A program made the translations under genes and the position numbers. Of a stretch of 36,121 nucleotides of DNA, positions 3,762 to 35,401 are shown one piece after another (within the stretch, counting starts at the first letter, position 1; every line of letters begins with the position of its first letter). Source of the DNA: a virus (taxonomy: Duplodnaviria > Heunggongvirae > Uroviricota > Caudoviricetes); the IMG/VR virus record IMGVR_UViG_2778261180_000005; one strand, given 5' to 3'. Below the pieces are notes generated by a model that ran no database searches, had not been told where the DNA came from, and saw nothing but the letters and a program-made list of their open reading frames with translations.

Positions 3762-3796
3762 ATTAGTGTCCTCGAAAATAATAAGTTCACTACTAT

Positions 3797-4249
3797 TTAT
3801 TGAGAAAAATTTGTTGTAATGGTTGAAGACCACGGGCATGAGTAGTAACCACGACCGCCACCGATCAAGCAAATGGTCGGACGGAAGCCAGTAAGATCGC
3901 AAAATGAATCAGTGTCATGTGCTGGGGAACGATGCTCTGCTTCGTTAGAGAAAATGTTGGCTACCGGAGATTCCACTTTAACTTCCGGTGCTTCTTCAAC
4001 ATCTGACTTAACTTCTTCGACCACTGGTTCAACTGCCGGAGATTCTTCTTTTGTTTCTTCAATGACGATCTCAGGTTCTTTCATTGCTTCAACCAGAGAC
4101 GGATCAACTTCGTCGAATACCACTTTATCATCTGCGGTGTCTGCTGCCAGAATAAGATCGTTAATACTGGTTCCTTCTGCCGGAGTTTCTTCTTCCATTT
4201 CGGAAGCCAGTTTAGTTAATTCGGTTTCTACGAACTCGATCATCAACAT
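3797..4249 (-). CDS. hypothetical highly acidic protein (150 aa)
   Basis: About 30 D/E in the first ~100 residues. Same strand as the 332-aa nuclease-like gene and 35 nt upstream of it. Weak SD. The antisense S/T-rich ORF is judged an artefact. Confidence 0.45.
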   Translation of the reverse strand: MLMIEFVETELTKLASEMEEETPAEGTSINDLILAADTADDKVVFDEVDPSLVEAMKEPEIVIEETKEESPAVEPVVEEVKSDVEEAPEVKVESPVANIFSNEAEHRSPAHDTDSFCDLTGFRPTICLIGGGRGYYSCPWSSTITTNFSQ

Positions 4250-14857: not shown

Positions 14858-15199
14858 TTAACCGCTTCTGAGTTTCTCAAGCAAAGATGGATCAAACATG
14901 TTCAGCATTGCCGCTTTACGTTCTTCTTCTTTCTTGCGTGCAATTTCTTCCAGTTCTTCTTTAGTTTTAAAGAGTTTTTCTTCTCTAATTAATTGGAATT
15001 GGCTAGGCTTGAGTTTACGTGCAGTTTCGCGTGTCATTCCTTGCGACGTCATATACATGGAATATTGCAACATCGCATTCTGCATATCATGAAACGCGGG
15101 GCTTTGTGGTTCTAAGTAGGTGTCGAAAATGTATAATTTCCAAAACAGAGTGATTGGCATATTATCCATTTCATCTTTACTAAGCCCCGATCTCATCAT
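14858..15199 (-). CDS. tail assembly chaperone, T-like distal part (probably made as a G-T frameshift fusion)
   Basis: ORF in the -1 frame relative to the upstream chaperone ORF. No SD before its ATG. The -1 frame is open from just upstream of the G stop codon. Confidence 0.6.
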   Translation of the reverse strand: MMRSGLSKDEMDNMPITLFWKLYIFDTYLEPQSPAFHDMQNAMLQYSMYMTSQGMTRETARKLKPSQFQLIREEKLFKTKEELEEIARKKEEERKAAMLNMFDPSLLEKLRSG

Positions 15200-26539: not shown

Positions 26540-28444
26540 TTAGAACGATGTTACCCAACTACGGCCTCTATTTGGACGTCTGGCGATGTTTTTACGTTGT
26601 GGTCGTGTGATTGGCTTAGTTTCTTCGATTTTCTCGTCAGATTGCGATTTAGGAGCTTTTACGGGTTCTTCGACAACACGGTTTAAGCTGTCTTTCATTG
26701 CAATGAGTTTATCCCATGACATTTTTGAAAGGACGTAGCGAGAAGCCGCTGTAGCATACACGGCGCAGTCGAGCGCCTCGTTCCTAACGCCTGGGTTCTT
26801 TACCCATCTCACGCCAGTAGTAGTACGCTTGACAGATTCACTTAAAAGCTGATCGAGATAATCATCAGGAACGGTGTCTGATATTTCTAAGCCAATATGA
26901 GGATTATCTTTCAGGTTCCTAGCCAACATTTCACGAAATGCAGTTTTACCCACATTAACACCCAACATAAGCAATTCATGACCACCTGTGCGGGTAGGTT
27001 TAACCGGAATGATCGGAGCGTTACCAGCAGAACTACCTTTGATAGCGTGTAAGTTCTTCCACTTGCCGCAAATACGGTATCCAGCTTGAGTGAATCGACC
27101 GTTCGATGTATCAAGGAAGCTGGCGAGCATAGGAACACGATCACCCGATACAGTAGTAAATTTGGTTTTATGGAAGTTGATTAATCTATCCCATACAGGG
27201 GATTCATATCGTTCACAGTTATGATCGTAAAAGCTGCGATGATCCAGAATATAAATCTTATCCTTTGCCACGCCCATGATTGTAGTTTCTGCGCGATCTA
27301 ATTGCTGGTCGGTACCCGCACACAAGAAAATCACGTCATCAGGGATATTCTCGATAGAAACATCTGTTTTTAGTTGTTCCAGTTCATTTGCTTCTACTGC
27401 CGTGTCCTGATCGTCGTATACCTTGCCTAACACGGTGTTATAAAATGATTGTAAATCAAAGGATTGCCACGCATGGCTAAAATCAACCACACAAGCGCGG
27501 ATCGTGCTGAAAGGTGAATACAGACGGCTGATCCAGAATCCTGCTACCTCACTTTCACGGGTTGCTCTCCACTCGCCTTGTGCTACTGCCCTGATTCGTT
27601 CCCCTTCGGTCCATGCGTTCTTACAGTGGGGGCAAATATAACGAGCGGTATCAGGATCGGGTAAGTTCTTACCATCGATGTTACGCCATTCAAATTGAAC
27701 GTTTTCCCACTCGATCACCTGGTGTTCCCCGCAATGAGGACACGGAACAAAAAACATACGCATATCACTTGATAACCATTGCTGGTTAATGCTTCCGAGC
27801 TTACTGGTCGGGGTACTGGATACGACTAATCGGCCTTCATCGCCAAAGGTAGTTAAACGGTTAGCAGCCAGTGCCACCGGATCACCTTCTTCTGAGGCTG
27901 TAGCAGCATCGATTTCGTCAAGCAATCCAACCTTTGCGGTCTTACCGCGTAGGGTTGATGGACTAGTAAGCGATACCATATAAAGGAAGTGGTTTGATTT
28001 GAGCTGGAGCTGATTGTTGTTATTAACAGAATTGCGATCATTCTTGTCTGTAACCACGTCTTTTAATGCATCACATGCTTCGATAGACGGTCGGATCTTA
28101 CCCGCGAGATATTGAGACATTTCTTTAGCGGTTGATTGTCCGATAATCATATTGCATGGATCGTTAGCCATCTGGTTAAACAGGATACCGTTTAGGATGG
28201 TAGTTTTTCCGATCTGCGCACTGGTCATCAGTACATACTTTTTCTTATTCTCAAGGAAAGGAGCATCAATCATGCCTTTCTGGAATGACAGCAATTTAAC
28301 TTTATCCCCCGCTTGAGGACCATCTACCAGCACCATATTCGCTTCGCACCATTCAGAAGGAAGGAGTTTAGGCGGTGGCGTAATATATTTGGCTGCATTT
28401 TTGAGAATCTTTTTTAATTTGGCCTTATTAGAAATCAGTTTCAT
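26540..28444 (-). CDS. terminase large subunit, lambda gpA type (634 aa)
   Basis: Walker A SAQIGKTT, Walker [11 protein letters not shown], paired CxxC motifs (CPHCGEHQ ... CPHCKNAW). First gene of the late operon. SD GAGGGT. Confidence 0.95.
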
Positions 28445-28529: not shown

Positions 28530-29132
28530 ATGCTAATTAATCAGCAACAAAGAGATGAATTAGAATTAGCCTTGTCTTGTACCGATCATGAATATCGTTT
28601 ACCAGTTAAGCATAAGCATTTAAAAACCGACTACACAACATCTGGCTTTAGTCGTGAGGAAGCGAAAGAGATTTTAATAGAGTTTTACCGCGATAATGGT
28701 TATACAGACGTTCACAACTTCTTTAAGAAGCATAGAACATCACATACAGAGTTTCGGAGAGTCCGAGATTGGTTTGATTTTGATATCAAGCGTTATTATC
28801 GAGTGGATGACGGTCCTATCTATCGGTTGCAGTGGACACCGATCAGGGAAGTGTTGAAACAGAAGAGATTGAATCACGCAATTACACGCTATCGTAACGA
28901 GGCTTTCAAGAAAGGCTATGGTGATACAAGGGAACTATTCGTTGAACTCGCTAACGTGCGTTATAGCCACTATTACAACGATCCTAAAGGGTTCTTTGAA
29001 GTGCTTCGCAAGGTTGATATAAGTCGGGGTACATACTATTCACGGTTGAAGAAGTACGGGATTAAGGCAGAGTTCTTTATGAGTATTGACGATGGAGAAC
29101 TTTTTCCGATAAAATGTAAGTCCTCTAAATAA
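28530..29132 (+). CDS. DNA-binding protein with two tandem copies of a ~55-aa HTH module (200 aa)
   Basis: Internal duplication. The second module, [30 protein letters not shown], matches the 75-aa and 60-aa proteins. SD GGGGGG. Confidence 0.7.
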
Positions 29133-29166
29133 AGGTGAACATTCACTTTAATTTGGAGAAATGACT

Positions 29167-29394
29167 ATGACTACTAAAGCTACTCGCGGTCGTCCTTGCC
29201 GTTTTAACGCTGAACAGATGGCTGATATTGCCTACGCTTACTATACAGCGGATCGTGGTAAGGAAGCGAAAGAACAGATTCTTAGTGAACATGGGATCTC
29301 AATCGCCCAATTCTATAAGAATATGAAGAAGTTAGACATTAAATTCTATGTTCAGATCGGTGATGGTCAGATCGTAGAAGCAACAGGTTTTTGA
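29167..29394 (+). CDS. small HTH protein, paralogue family (75 aa from ATG 29167)
   Basis: RGRPCRF...GISIAQFYKNMKKLDIKFYVQIGDGQIV. GGAG lies 8 nt before ATG 29167 but only 2 nt before ATG 29161. Confidence 0.7.
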   Translation: MTTKATRGRPCRFNAEQMADIAYAYYTADRGKEAKEQILSEHGISIAQFYKNMKKLDIKFYVQIGDGQIVEATGF

Positions 29395-31260: not shown

Positions 31261-31356
31261 AGTGGAAATCCTCTAAAAGAAAGTGAATCAAAGTAAGTTC
31301 ACTATTATTTATAACGAGAAATTTTTGTCTAATTTGAAAGGAATTGGTATTCAGTC

Positions 31357-31858
31357 GGCTTCGCCTCCTTCATAGATTTTGATTAAATCATCATCAAAAC
31401 GAAGAAGTATCTTTAGAATATAAGAATCTTTCTTTTGGAGAAATAATAATCCGGAAGCAATTTAGCAACCGAAGGTTGCAATCCCGAAGGGATACCAATA
31501 CCTTTCATGATCATTAAAGTGATCTAGAATCATCTAGTAACCAGTTAACTACTATTATCTTCAAAGTGATTATTACTATCTTTCTAGAATCAGTTAGTAA
31601 CTAGTTTAAAATCCCTTTCAAGAAAATCCTTTCAGAAGTGATTCTCGATGCCACGCAGTGGCGTCGCAGACGTTTGAGAGTGAGCGAAGCGAGCGAGCAA
31701 ACTAGTTAATTCCTTCTAAGACCATCTAGTATCATCTAGTTTAAATTAGTGTTACTAGAAGTAATTGGTTAGCGCTTCGCGCAGTCGGGCTACGCCCTCC
31801 TAATATCTTTTTGGTTATTTGTTGTTTTTGGTTTTACACATGAGCGTAGCGAATGTGT
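31357..31858. repeat. cluster of G/C-clamped mini-hairpins with trinucleotide GNA (or complementary TNC) loops
   Basis: GGC-TTC-GCC 31357. GCAACC-GAA-GGTTGC 31465. ATCCC-GAA-GGGAT 31481. GATGCCAC-GCA-GTGGCGTC 31647. GC-GAA-GC 31684. GCGC-TTC-GCGC 31772. GGGC-TAC-GCCC 31787. ACACAT-ga(GC-GTA-GC)ga-ATGTGT 31836. Confidence 0.75.
31523..31606. repeat. two copies of a 24-bp CTAG-rich repeat exactly 60 bp apart
   Basis: TCTAGAATCATCTAGTAACCAGTT (31523-31546) and TCTAGAATCAGTTAGTAACTAGTT (31583-31606), 21/24 identical. Related CATCTAGT motifs at 31724-31740. Confidence 0.75.
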
Positions 31859-31890
31859 TATATAATATCTATGCACGCCCGATCCCCCGC

Positions 31891-32133
31891 TTTTGCCCCT
31901 CACTAAGTTAATGTTTTATAAAGAGTTTTTCTCACCAATCCTTTTCGGGGGCAAATTTCAGGGGCAAAAATTAGATTTTCAGGGGCAATTATTGGCATTT
32001 CAGGGGCAAAAATGAGGGGCAAAATCACTGTTTCCCAGAATTTCAGGGGCAAAAATAGTGGGTTTCAGGGGCAAAAATGGGATAGTGAAATCTAGGGGAT
32101 TTTGGTTCAGGGGCAAAATTCAGGGGCAAATTT
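31891..32133. repeat. iteron array: nine direct copies of (T)TTCAGGGGCAAA(A) plus one inverted copy
   Basis: GGGGCAA cores start at 31948, 31961, 31982, 32003, 32016, 32046, 32068, 32110 and 32123. The inverted copy is at 31893-31899. Confidence 0.9.
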
Positions 32134-32135
32134 CA

Positions 32136-32185
32136 TAGTGTAGGGCTAGTGTAGGTTTGAAAATCCTTTGTTGACACTGTGTAGG
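32136..32185. promoter_or_regulatory. three GTGTAGG operator-like repeats around the promoter
   Basis: TAGTGTAGG at 32136-32144 and 32147-32155. TGTGTAGG at 32178-32185, inside the -35/-10 spacer. Confidence 0.6.
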
Positions 32186-32199
32186 ATCGGTGGTATACT
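32171..32199 (+). promoter_or_regulatory. near-consensus sigma70 promoter with extended -10
   Basis: TTGACA (32171-32176), 17-nt spacer, TGgTATACT (32191-32199). Confidence 0.8.
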
Positions 32200-32465
32200 T
32201 GAAAATTCGAGATAAATATGTTATAATATTTGTATTGAAAGTGAAAATTTACCGATTTTCCTTCCTATTGTTATCACTGTGTTAAATTGTTATATGTCTG
32301 TGAAGATTTGGATCTGAGAGAAAATCTTGTAACAAATCTTTACAATTCATAGCTCAATTAATGCTCACCGCTTTAGCAAAAAGTGCTATGCCTTTTTCTA
32401 AATTGATTGAATAAACATCAATTTGGTTAATTCGTGTTCTTCTCTTTAGCAATTCGTGCTGCGGT

Positions 32466-32512
32466 TTAACACATTTAACACGCCTGATAACATCCAAATA
32501 ACATTTTAACAT
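32466..32512. repeat. five phased (T/A)TAACA(C/T) repeats in AT-rich DNA
   Basis: TTAACAC at 32466 and 32475. ATAACAT at 32487 and 32498. TTAACAT at 32506. Spacing is 8-12 bp. Confidence 0.5.
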
Positions 32513-32591
32513 ATCTCTGTTCTAAATACATATATAAGAGATAAATGTGAGGGGTTGAAAAATTAAAAACAATCCCCATATAAATAATAGT

Positions 32592-32612
32592 GAGCGGTTA
32601 ACGCTCTTTTTT
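32592..32612 (+). terminator. short terminator/attenuator at the end of the untranslated leader
   Basis: GAGCG-GTTAA-CGCTC followed by TTTTTT. Lies 35 nt before the start of the 60-aa HTH gene. Confidence 0.55.
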
Positions 32613-32647
32613 AAGAAATCATTAATCCAGATTTAGGAGGATTCAAG

Positions 32648-32830
32648 ATGGCACGACCTGTTAAGTTCACTCGTGAAATCGTTTTAGAAATGGCAAAGCG
32701 TTATTTTGAACTGACGCCTGATGTAGTGATTGGTGAATGGTTTAAAGGTGAAGGTATTGATCAATCAACCTTCCACAAACTCTTAAAGAAGTATGACATT
32801 AAAGTAAAGATAACCGCAGAGGTTTACTGA
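32648..32830 (+). CDS. small HTH protein, paralogue family (60 aa)
   Basis: ARPVKFTREIV...GIDQSTFHKLLKKYDIKVKIT. Strong SD AGGAGG. Confidence 0.75.
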   Translation: MARPVKFTREIVLEMAKRYFELTPDVVIGEWFKGEGIDQSTFHKLLKKYDIKVKITAEVY

Positions 32831-32872
32831 TACTTTGACTGAGAATTATATGATGGCTTTAAAAATAAAAAA

Positions 32873-32900
32873 GCCCCCTTGCGGCAACAAGGAGGCTTTT
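32873..32900 (+). terminator. terminator-like hairpin
   Basis: GCCCCCTTG-6nt-CAAGGAGGC (one mismatch) followed by TTTT. Confidence 0.6.
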
Positions 32901-32942: not shown

Positions 32943-33884
32943 ATGTTATTTTCCGCTAACTTTTTCACTAACGAAGTAACCAACGCTAAAGCAGTTATCA
33001 AATTTGGCACCGAAGCAAACAAGAAGATTCAGCCGAAAGTTGTTGCTCATGTTTCCTTTGCGCAGCAGAAATCCGCTTTCGCTGGCTTTAAAGCACATCG
33101 TGAAGCACTGATCGCGGCTGGCTTTGGTGTTGACGGTAAACTGCCTAACGGCATTCGTAAAGCAATCGACCGCGTTAAACCTGCTAAAGACGTTGCAGTA
33201 GACCACATCGTTACTTTTACCGTTAAGAACTCTTCTGAACTGTTCCACCTGGTTATTGCTGGTGATACTGCTATCGTTTCCGCTCCTAACATGGATTTTC
33301 AGGATACCGCTGATTGCCAGATCACCTTCGGTCGTCGTAAAGAAGTTACCGGAAAAGCTAAACTGAACTTCACTAAATCCGGCAATCCTTACTTTGCTGT
33401 TTTCTTTAACAGCCACGCTACCGAAAAAGAAGTTGTAGAACTGGTTGCTTATGAAGGTGAAGAGAAAGAACGTATTGAATCTTGCGAAGCATTTCTGGAA
33501 CTGGAAGCACAGGTGAATGCTGTTTCTCCGGTTGTTGAAGATCGCTTTGCTGCACTGGAAGCACAGATCGCAGAACTGAAAGCTGCACTGGAAGAAAAAG
33601 ACCAGATTATCGAAGCACAGAAAGCTGAGATTGAAGAACTGAAAGCTAAAGAAGTTGCTCCGGTAGCAGTAGTTGAAAACGCGGCTGATGAGGCCGCAAA
33701 TGATGAAGTAGAAGTGAAAATCGATGTGATGCGTGATCCGATGGCTGCACTGCAATTACTTCGTTCTTTTAAGGGCAAATCTCATTTTTCTAGTGATGTA
33801 GAAGATGAGGAAGAAGAACAGAAACGCAATGCTGCAATGCTTCATGATGAAATGTACGGTACTAACTTTTCTTACTGCCAATAA
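32943..33884 (+). CDS. abundant-expression-type protein of unknown function (313 aa): globular N-domain, coiled coil, acidic C-terminus
   Basis: SD AGGAG. Codon choice is dominated by E. coli high-expression codons (CTG, GAA, AAA, CGT, GGT, GCT). Coiled coil FAALEAQIAELKAALEEKDQIIEAQKAEIEELKAK. Confidence 0.85.
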   Translation: MLFSANFFTNEVTNAKAVIKFGTEANKKIQPKVVAHVSFAQQKSAFAGFKAHREALIAAGFGVDGKLPNGIRKAIDRVKPAKDVAVDHIVTFTVKNSSELFHLVIAGDTAIVSAPNMDFQDTADCQITFGRRKEVTGKAKLNFTKSGNPYFAVFFNSHATEKEVVELVAYEGEEKERIESCEAFLELEAQVNAVSPVVEDRFAALEAQIAELKAALEEKDQIIEAQKAEIEELKAKEVAPVAVVENAADEAANDEVEVKIDVMRDPMAALQLLRSFKGKSHFSSDVEDEEEEQKRNAAMLHDEMYGTNFSYCQ

Positions 33885-34498: not shown

Positions 34499-34547
34499 TA
34501 GACGTTGACCCGTTCAACATCTTTCTCACTATTATTTATAACGCGTT

Positions 34548-35105
34548 TTAAGACACATCAAATTCATCGTCTTCTTCTGGTTCTTGTTCTTCCGGTTCAT
34601 CCATTAATGGTAATTCTTCTTCCTCGTCTTCTCCCAAATCTGCATTTTCGAACAAGTCCCCTACTTCATTTAAACGACGCTCGATAATCTCCCTTAGCTT
34701 ATTCTTTAATGTTTTCTGGTCAGTGGCAGATTCGAGAATTTCTAAAGCGTCGATTGTGGCGATCTGCAAAATAGTCTGCTTCACTTTCCCGCAGTATTCC
34801 GCTAGCTCCTGCTCCACATAACCGACGGGAATCAGGAGATTCATTTTTTCCTGGTTCTCTCGTTCGATGGCGTCCGCTAATGCTCTTTCTCTGCGGAGAC
34901 GTTCTTGATCAATCGCTTCTTTGATTGAAGTTTGTTTAAGTGGGTTAATTACGTTCTTTAGCACCCAATCGCAACCTTCCTTTGCTGGTACACGACGCGT
35001 GTGGGTGTTCATCGGTAGTCCCCTTTCTAACCATCGCTTACCGCCACCATTCAATGTATAGCCATATAAACGGGAAATTTCTGTAAGGGTTAATTCTTCT
35101 TTCAT
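34548..35105 (-). CDS. putative terminase small subunit, Nu1-like winged-HTH protein (185 aa)
   Basis: The N-terminus LTLTEISRLYGYTLNGGGKRWLERGLPM...VPAKEGCDWV parallels lambda Nu1 (KKQLADIFGASIRTIQNWQEQGMPV...). Coiled-coil middle, acidic tail. SD GGAGGA. Confidence 0.55.
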   Translation of the reverse strand: MKEELTLTEISRLYGYTLNGGGKRWLERGLPMNTHTRRVPAKEGCDWVLKNVINPLKQTSIKEAIDQERLRRERALADAIERENQEKMNLLIPVGYVEQELAEYCGKVKQTILQIATIDALEILESATDQKTLKNKLREIIERRLNEVGDLFENADLGEDEEEELPLMDEPEEQEPEEDDEFDVS

Positions 35106-35401
35106 TGGTTATCCTCCATTAAATTTGCGTAATTTTATTTATTGGTTTTACGCAAAATCTAAGCGCCTAAATCGCATTCTAACGAAGGGAAAGATCCAGT
35201 AATGGTAAGGGTTAGGAAGTGGGTTAATAGTCGCGTAGCGACCGCGCCATGAGTGAAGTGATCACGTTTTAGATCCTGACGCGCACATCAAATAACGGGG
35301 TGCCGAAAACTCGCTTTATTTCACCCGTGGAACAGTACCTTTTGATTTTGTCAAGTCTTTTTTATAAATAATCGAAAATATTTTTCACGCGAGGGCAAAT
35401 C

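Follow-up and report, generated by a model that had tools for sequence, protein, structure and literature searches.

Iteron replicons such as P1 oriR/repA, F ori2/repE and pSC101 repA, with lambda ori/O as the phage analogue, are the closest described systems to the region analyzed here; in lambda, transcription near the origin matters. The plasmids pIP501, pAMbeta1 and pT181, in which the rep mRNA is attenuated, have a small repressor and a ~330-nt leader with a terminator before rep, and their attenuation needs an antisense RNA from a promoter within the leader. We analyzed a 1.39-kb non-coding gap at positions 31261-32647 of a Caudoviricetes prophage (IMG/VR record IMGVR_UViG_2778261180_000005; its whole stretch of 36,121 nt is called the window), which is bordered by a leftward 150-aa gene (p150) on one side and by the rightward genes p60 and p313 on the other. 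Our preferred reading of the sequence, held tentatively and at somewhat less than even confidence, is that the region is the transcriptional control of an iteron-and-initiator module that would probably be the replication origin.

The region shares with iteron replicons a set of direct repeats in one orientation beside AT-rich DNA, a promoter reading into the gene of a repeat-matched protein, and cassettes that are exchangeable among related elements. Unlike in those replicons, the repeat core is 7-8 bp long with irregular spacing, DnaA boxes are not enriched, p313 lacks similarity to RepA, pi or O-type winged-helix proteins, and the promoter is separated from the candidate initiator gene by a ~400-nt structured leader and a 60-aa gene. 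With pIP501, pAMbeta1 and pT181, the region has in common a strong promoter, a long structured leader, a terminator before the first operon gene and a small DNA-binding protein, but the only antisense candidate is a weak one on the minus strand (a marbox, or site for the regulators MarA, SoxS and Rob, followed by TATGAA), and the host and the proteins are unrelated. As a whole, the layout resembles that of iteron replicons and that of attenuated rep leaders. What is undescribed in it is the RNA, the protein family of p313 and the marboxes embedded in the leader.

The repeat array is linked to a downstream protein across recombining DNA

The iteron array, GGGGCAA(A/T), occupies positions 31893-32131 on the plus strand and consists of one inverted copy (31893-31899) and nine direct repeats, which are spaced by 13, 21, 21, 13, 30, 22, 42 and 13 bp. 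GGGGCAA is found 14 times in the window compared to 3.1 expected copies, and 10 of the 14 fall into this single cluster of ~240 bp, which ends 40 bp 5′ of the first promoter, P1. At the same place, relatives carry arrays of GTGTAGG (6-9 copies) or CGGGGA (13-16 copies), and the orientation is always the same.

In 44 of 45 loci, the array type fits the protein whose gene follows p60; the remaining locus is a Shigella remnant disrupted by an insertion sequence element. GGGGCAA arrays are paired with p313, GTGTAGG arrays with p328/331 and an 80-aa protein, and CGGGGA arrays with p337/340 and a 333-aa protein. Between the array and the protein gene, two leader types and several p60 alleles are found in at least six combinations, including recombinants with a GGGGCAA array and a type-2 leader (L056) or with a GTGTAGG array and a type-1 leader (L027 and L054). 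The p60 alleles have 55-100% identity and recombine independently of the iteron type, and the alleles of the large terminase (TerL), the small-terminase-like protein (TerS-like), Rha, p150 and p200 are also independent of the array type. Linkage of repeat and protein across such freely recombining DNA argues for their functional pairing, and we infer that p313 binds the GGGGCAA iterons.

The cassette upstream of the array moves together with the iteron type. In the window, the upstream part of this array-specific cassette (31684-31850) holds a cluster of GCG[A/T]AGC mini-hairpins and a T-rich stretch, with GCGNAGC at 31684 (+), 31774 (-), 31789 (-) and 31844 (+) and a fifth copy at 31358 (-); 5 of the 13 window copies are located within the ~500 bp (31358-31850) upstream of the iterons. 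Motifs of the GCGNAGC type have been found at priming origins (PMC13037366). The DNA beside the iterons is AT-rich, having 24% GC at 32200-32299 and, in loci with type-2 leaders, taking the form of a 230-bp AT-rich spacer.

Several other features of the repeats were recorded. The other array cassettes hold equivalent GC-rich tri-loop hairpins. All three repeat types are G-rich on one strand (window, 31948-32129; L033, 5172-5425; L036, 5310-5440), and within CGGGGA arrays, runs like GGGGACGGGAAAGGGACGGGG conform to a G-quadruplex pattern; the repeats might therefore be recognized as single-stranded or structured DNA. Four TCTAGAATCATCTAGTA-like repeats are located at 31523-31748, near the leftward promoter, in the intergenic part that is common to all relatives.

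The candidate iteron-binding initiator, p313 (32943-33884, plus strand), combines a beta-rich domain at its N-terminus (~180 aa) with a coiled coil and an acidic tail. The p331- and p337-type proteins have the same architecture, with sequences that barely align. A further homology search for p313 added only the p331 family, while protein searches with p313, P0127 and p60 against phages and plasmids returned no match. A single-sequence AlphaFold model of p313 was unusable (pLDDT 46). Of the p313 relatives and the proteins paired with them, most end in ...AA or ...VA (YAYAA, LDFAA, RRAA, LKAA, LRLVA and LRIVA), ends that resemble ClpXP degradation tags (L049, 36053-37306; L050, 36147-38189; P0122; P0127); p313 itself ends in SYCQ.

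Two putative promoters, a predicted structured leader and a conserved terminator

A sequence-only reading of this stretch had proposed a single consensus promoter under the control of GTGTAGG operators. The promoter, P1 (TTGACA-17-TATACT at 32171-32199, plus strand), is present with an 11/12 match, is TG-extended and has an estimated start at ~32206. It is overlapped by a second promoter that had gone unrecorded, P2 (TTGAAA-17-TATAAT at 32199-32227, plus strand; 11/12; estimated start ~32234), which is located 28 bp further downstream and has one base in common with P1. Both putative sigma-70 promoters score 10-12/12 in all relatives that have a GGGGCAA array and a type-1 leader; P2 reaches 12/12 in many of them, and several relatives have two perfect promoters. 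The position of P2 is conserved in all type-1 leaders and, in the alignment, falls on the one promoter that L027 and L054 have; type-2 leaders all have a single promoter at 10-11/12. The view of P1 as the sole source of p60 expression is not supported: a 15-mer that resembles a promoter or operator and recurs in the window is located directly at the terminator.

The three GTGTAGG copies are located on the plus strand where they had been placed (32138, 32149 and 32179, spanning 32138-32185), and the motif is found six times in the window compared to 1.9 expected copies (2 of 100 shuffles reach six). As a classic operator arrangement, however, they did not hold up: GTGTAGG is the iteron of another specificity class, the one paired with p328/331, and its copies decay in relatives. 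In 7 of 22 close relatives one or two copies are missing and both promoters are kept, the promoter spacer of L027 and L054 has no copy with the same leader type, and L056, with its GGGGCAA iterons and p313, has no GTGTAGG at all. The three copies are best read as leftovers of array exchange.

From P2 to the terminator, the predicted structured non-coding leader RNA (32234-32612, plus strand) is 379 nt long, or ~407 nt if it starts at P1. The minimum free energy (MFE) of this type-1 leader is -91.6 kcal/mol on the plus strand (z -6.03 vs shuffles) compared to -81.9 kcal/mol on the minus strand (z -3.15). The type-2 leader of L036 shows the same strand bias, with -80.5 kcal/mol (z -5.05) on the plus strand and -63.9 kcal/mol (z -1.62) on the minus strand. 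We aligned 19 distinct type-1 and 17 distinct type-2 sequences, whose mean column identities are 94% and 93%, respectively; both leaders are better conserved than p60, and the two types have only short blocks in common. Of the 65 pairs in the type-2 consensus structure, three have two-sided compensatory changes, and 99.1% of cells are paired; the structure has 17 extra pair types compared to at most 9 in slid controls, and no more than 7 of 500 shuffles come up to the observed values. In a covariance-model search of Rfam 15, neither the window nor the type-2 leader matched any family. Consistent with the earlier claim of a long untranslated leader, the 36 related leaders hold no conserved plus-strand open reading frame (ORF) of at least 15 aa with a Shine-Dalgarno (SD) sequence.

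Most of the elements that the sequence-only reading had listed within the leader are indeed there, and some acquire a different role in the RNA model. The direct repeat AATTCGTG is present at 32429 and 32451. A long-range helix closes the central domain by pairing its 5′ strand, UGUUAUCAC...UGUUAAAUUGUUA (32269-32292), with positions 32467-32492; it was obtained from both RNAalifold and the MFE structure and corresponds to inverted repeat I3. Of its 20 pairs, 19 are invariant or vary via G·U, and one cell is broken. The five TTAACA-type repeats at 32466-32512 exist, but reading them as phased repeats does not stand, as three of them (32466-32492) form the 3′ strand of this helix in the RNA model; the last two (~32498-32512) lie outside it. 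The bulged hairpin AUGUG-A-GGGGUUG...CAAUCCC-CAUAU is present at 32545-32581 on the plus strand, with 12 bp and one bulge. It is conserved and is the one structural element common to both leader types, being located directly after the promoter in type 2.

The leader is closed by an intrinsic terminator or attenuator, GAGCGGTTAACGCTC plus T6 (GAGCG-GUUAA-CGCUC plus U6 in the RNA), at 32592-32612 on the plus strand, whose 5-bp stem has four GC pairs. It had been predicted to close the leader before the 60-aa gene, and we found it conserved, ~45 nt before the ATG in every relative with either leader type and ~35 nt before the SD of p60. Sequence divergence starts exactly after its T-run, which marks the recombination boundary of the leader module.

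The terminator is overlapped by the promoter/operator-like 15-mer TATAAATAATAGTGA (32579-32593, plus strand). Exact copies of TATAAATAATAGTGA are found before p150 (31299-31313, minus strand), p60 and p94 (34526-34540, minus strand), each followed by a hairpin, a T-run, an SD and an ATG; near copies are located at 3787-3801 (minus strand) and 35363-35377 (plus strand) and, in relatives, before p77 and another gene. The shorter TATAAATA is found seven times in the window compared to 2.9 expected copies, always in non-structural regions. No consistent -35 element accompanies the 15-mer, which may serve as promoter, as operator or in both roles and probably represents a promoter/operator class specific to this phage. 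Should it act as a promoter, the main role of the terminator would be to set the 3′ end of the RNA made from P1 and P2.

The first gene after the terminator, p60 (32648-32830, plus strand), has the SD AGGAGG at 32635-32640 and an ATG at 32648, as had been noted, and encodes 60 aa with the motif ARPxKF...GIxxxxFHKLLKKYDIK. Its proposed helix-turn-helix (HTH) character rests on motif comparison, by which it looks like a Hin/resolvase-type HTH; searches of Pfam, PHROG, NCBIfam and PADLOC gave no hit. The motif [AG]RPxKF plus G[IS]xxxx[FY][HY]K..KK[YL][DG]IK is shared by p60, p77 (29161-29394) and the C-terminus of p200 (28530-29132); the three look like paralogous DNA binders and fit none of the family models. 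Between p60 and p313, a 14-bp hairpin (32869-32900) has a terminator score on the minus strand only and probably keeps leftward transcripts out of p60 and the leader.

A type III toxin-antitoxin or defence system was rejected because PADLOC gave no hit and the RNA has no tandem repeats. Type-2 leaders contain two or three LexA-box-like CTG-N10-CAG sites that match the SOS-box consensus at 13-15 of 20 positions (L036, 5780-5900; L050, 35640-35762) and coincide with predicted RNA hairpins. The type-1 leader of the window has none, and LexA control of this leader was rejected, since no CTG-N10-CAG site of at least 12/20 is found in the window.

A candidate origin control region and its alternatives

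The reading as a control region of an iteron-and-initiator module draws on the repeat-protein linkage, the single repeat cluster, the lack of another replication candidate, the maintained promoters and the structured plus-strand RNA. In seven fully annotated prophage copies, no recognizable replication protein, other origin candidate or CI-type repressor was found. It also draws on the conserved boundary terminator, the AT-rich flanks, the GCGNAGC cluster and the exclusion of a packaging site (cos/pac), which was rejected because the TerS-like and TerL alleles do not follow the repeat type. A partition centromere was rejected as well, the element being chromosomally integrated and having no partition NTPase. 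The sequence-only reading had listed transcription that activates an adjacent origin as the third of its options, and this option has gained support from the iteron array next to it and from the covarying protein.

According to the proposed mechanism, most transcripts from P1 and P2 would stop at the terminator and yield RNAs of ~380 and 407 nt. The level of p60 and p313 would be set by read-through or by a separate start at the 15-mer that overlaps the terminator. Bound beside P1 and P2, p313 would feed back on the promoters and nucleate initiation, and transcription into the AT-rich leader would help to open or prime the origin. The leader marboxes would serve as an input for the host stress regulators MarA, SoxS or Rob.

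Several results weigh against this mechanism. First, searches of Pfam, PHROGs, NCBIfam, PADLOC and the PDB (with a single sequence and with a profile) related neither p313 nor its counterparts to a known initiator family, fold or domain, and these proteins show no ATPase, primase or winged-helix signature. Second, a single DnaA-box match is located near the array (31832-31840), and such boxes are not enriched in the window. Third, because a promoter-like 15-mer is located at the terminator, p60 and p313 may not depend on P1 and P2. Fourth, the type-1 leader shows no two-sided compensatory changes, as its variation is too low; eight pairs vary one-sidedly, all of them keeping the pairing via G·U. 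Stems are depleted of variable columns in both types (type 1, 7.4% paired vs 23.4% unpaired, p = 3e-5; type 2, 17.7% paired vs 31.2% unpaired); since this alignment also yielded the predicted structure, the depletion is in part circular. Lastly, the covariation of protein and repeat fits an immunity module, with a repressor and its operators, equally well.

The alternative that survives best is a stand-alone regulatory RNA of ~380-407 nt, made constitutively from P1 and P2 and ending at 32612, for example either an immunity or copy-control RNA like the P4 CI RNA or a pre-primer like RNA II, with p60 and p313 expressed from the 15-mer. We regard it as unlikely, though a serious possibility. It would account for consensus promoters that have no conserved operator, for the very stable and strand-specific fold of both leader types, for a terminator that coincides with the module boundary, for the exchange of leaders independently of p60, and for the same arrangement of the 15-mer before three genes; with no Rfam family matching, the RNA would be new. 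However, no trans target was found in the window, including for a CU-rich loop considered as a trans-acting element, for which no convincing target emerged. The terminator stem is only 5 bp long, so read-through is likely; the 15-mer is a putative promoter and has no consistent -35; and the short blocks shared by the leader types are hard to fit to one conserved trans-acting sequence. Like ColE1 RNA II and the P4 CI RNA, this would be a long structured RNA from a region that controls replication or immunity, and its promoter is likewise strong and apparently constitutive, but the RNA has no sequence or Rfam relation to either. ColE1 RNA II does not end at a terminator, and P4-like seqA/seqB complementarities to the processed RNA were not identified here.

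An immunity module, in which the p313-type proteins would be heteroimmune repressors, the arrays their operators and the leader a means of tuning the repressor, with replication located elsewhere or dependent on the host, appears quite improbable. Swapping of protein-site cassettes among similar phages is typical of immunity regions, the region is located between divergent operons, and no CI-like repressor is recognizable elsewhere. Yet 9-16 short repeats in one direction with irregular spacing (11-22 bp) are unlike dyad operators, the type-2 array ends ~230 bp upstream of the promoter, and the array of the window does not overlap P1 or P2. The HTH proteins p60, p77 and p200 and the 15-mer found at multiple promoters are better candidates for repressor and operator.

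A processive antitermination leader, in which a lambda nut-like boxA or a put-like RNA makes the polymerase resistant to the terminator, corresponds to the first option of the sequence-only reading and is very improbable. The boxA-like element it had named, TTCTCTTTAGCAA at 32440-32452, is present and matches the rrn boxA TGCTCTTTAACAA at 11 of 13 positions in a promoter-proximal leader ahead of a terminator, and a conserved hairpin is located upstream of the terminator in both leader types. The boxA interpretation itself fails: 1.63 such matches are expected per window, the core GCUCUUUA does not match beyond chance, and its GCTC reads TCT, TCG or CCG among the 19 type-1 leaders, while the flanking TTTAGCAATTCGTGC is invariant. 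Unlike lambda nut or rrn boxA, the element has no boxB partner at a fixed distance, the prophage encodes no N-like protein, and the distance from hairpin to terminator is 14 nt in type 1 but 290 nt in type 2. Read on the opposite strand, the conserved bases match a marbox.

A small protein hidden in the leader, for example in the minus-strand 52-aa ORF at 32354-32512, is hardly credible: this ORF is open in 18 of 19 type-1 relatives and type 2 has an open 22-aa ORF overlapping the same conserved block, but the type-1 ORF has no SD and no minus-strand promoter of at least 9/12, the lengths and sequences of the ORFs differ outside the conserved DNA block, and the plus-strand ORFs have no SD and are not conserved.

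Marbox matches in the leader and in lytic phages

The marbox consensus, gcannwwntgnnaaa, is asymmetric (PMC12052159). The minus strand of the leader matches it at 15 of 15 positions twice, in marbox 1 (GCACTTTTTGCTAAA, 32372-32386) and in marbox 2 (GCACGAATTGCTAAA, 32445-32459); the latter overlaps the boxA-like element, so that the invariant block of that element reads as a perfect marbox, and it is invariant in both leader types. Marbox 1 agrees with the marbox of mar, ATGCCACGTTTTGCTAAATC (PMC8279559), at 16 of 20 positions. Three perfect matches are found in the window compared to 0.81 expected. Among the relatives, marbox variation is confined to degenerate positions, and in two of them copy 1 has switched to the other variant. 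Reading the conserved block as a sigma-54 site was rejected, its spacing being off by 2 bp.

Unlike in promoters of the E. coli MarA/SoxS/Rob regulon, both marboxes are located within the predicted transcribed leader and point against P1 and P2. Only marbox 1 is at a class II distance from a -10-like element, the poor TATGAA at 32346-32351, which follows it by 20 nt on the minus strand; for marbox 2 there is none. Marbox 1 and TATGAA may form a weak antisense promoter. Relative to weak promoter-like sites on the plus strand, a class I placement of the marboxes is possible, but it differs between the leader types.

The marbox-2 17-mer CTTTAGCAATTCGTGCT was found in 82 IMG/VR stretches, many of them from lytic Drexlerviridae such as e4/1c, Sf12 and AHS24. 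In lytic Rogunavirus phages, the marbox motif is located 19-21 nt before a -10 element, as in class II promoters of the regulon. Lytic T1-like Drexlerviridae, IMG/VR loci L060-L139 included, have roughly a dozen perfect marboxes in each genome. AHS24 (L143, NC_024784.1) has 14 perfect marboxes, for example at 15108, 33019, 35942 and 41156, compared to 1.1 expected. Twelve of the 14 show class II geometry: AATA-GCAC..TGCTAAA is followed after 19-21 nt by a TATAGT-like -10 and then by CATCGAAACGA, an SD and an ATG. A Rha-family protein is encoded by both phage groups, that is, by this prophage and by the marbox-rich lytic phages, and it could be the true marbox ligand. Our literature search found no paper linking marboxes to phage promoters.

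The prophage and its distribution

The window is a ~36-kb E. coli prophage with ~41% GC, inserted in hicB, with a large serine integrase at 995-2689, lysis genes, and tail and head genes on the minus strand. Small unannotated genes fill 28.5-36 kb of the window; the early genes have no informative annotation, the Rha-family gene excepted. A search for tRNA and tmRNA genes found none. The TerL gene, of the lambda gpA type, is located at 26540-28444 on the minus strand, and a Nu1-like small terminase gene (34548-35105, minus strand) is located ~6 kb from it, the two being separated by early and regulatory genes that include the leader region.

The prophage family is found in 57 of 5426 complete E. 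coli genomes (~1%), and its insertion sites in E. coli and Shigella chromosomes are hicB, ycdX or codB. Its TerL has at most 45% identity to that of any phage record, and a megablast search of the region against phage and plasmid collections found no near match. Scans of genome contigs gave no match, a metagenome scan gave near-identical copies only, and our literature search found nothing on this prophage or its motif string.

Implications for prophage replication and regulation

A broader proposal is that the family, in which replication and repressor genes are not recognizable, is controlled by three new parts: a new class of structured RNA of ~300-400 nt, transcribed from consensus promoters in two interchangeable forms; a new family of repeat-specific proteins (p313, p331 and p337) whose beta-rich DNA-binding domain is unassigned; and the leader marboxes as an entry for MarA, SoxS or Rob. 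The RNA itself would act as a primer, copy-control or immunity RNA and not as a passive 5′ UTR. We consider this proposal improbable as a whole. If it is true, about a dozen promoters of lytic T1-like phages would rely on a host stress regulator.

Should the module prove to be an iteron origin of the ordinary kind whose rep operon is attenuated, the gain would be mainly one of annotation. The three repeat types, the three matching proteins and the two leader types nevertheless constitute a natural swap set, and the unit of promoter, leader and terminator, together with the array and the covarying protein, is an entry point for studying phage replication and regulation. If the marbox reading is true, MarA, SoxS and Rob, the regulators of antibiotic, oxidative and bile stress, would feed into the control of the prophage, and the same regulators would drive many promoters of lytic T1-like phages.

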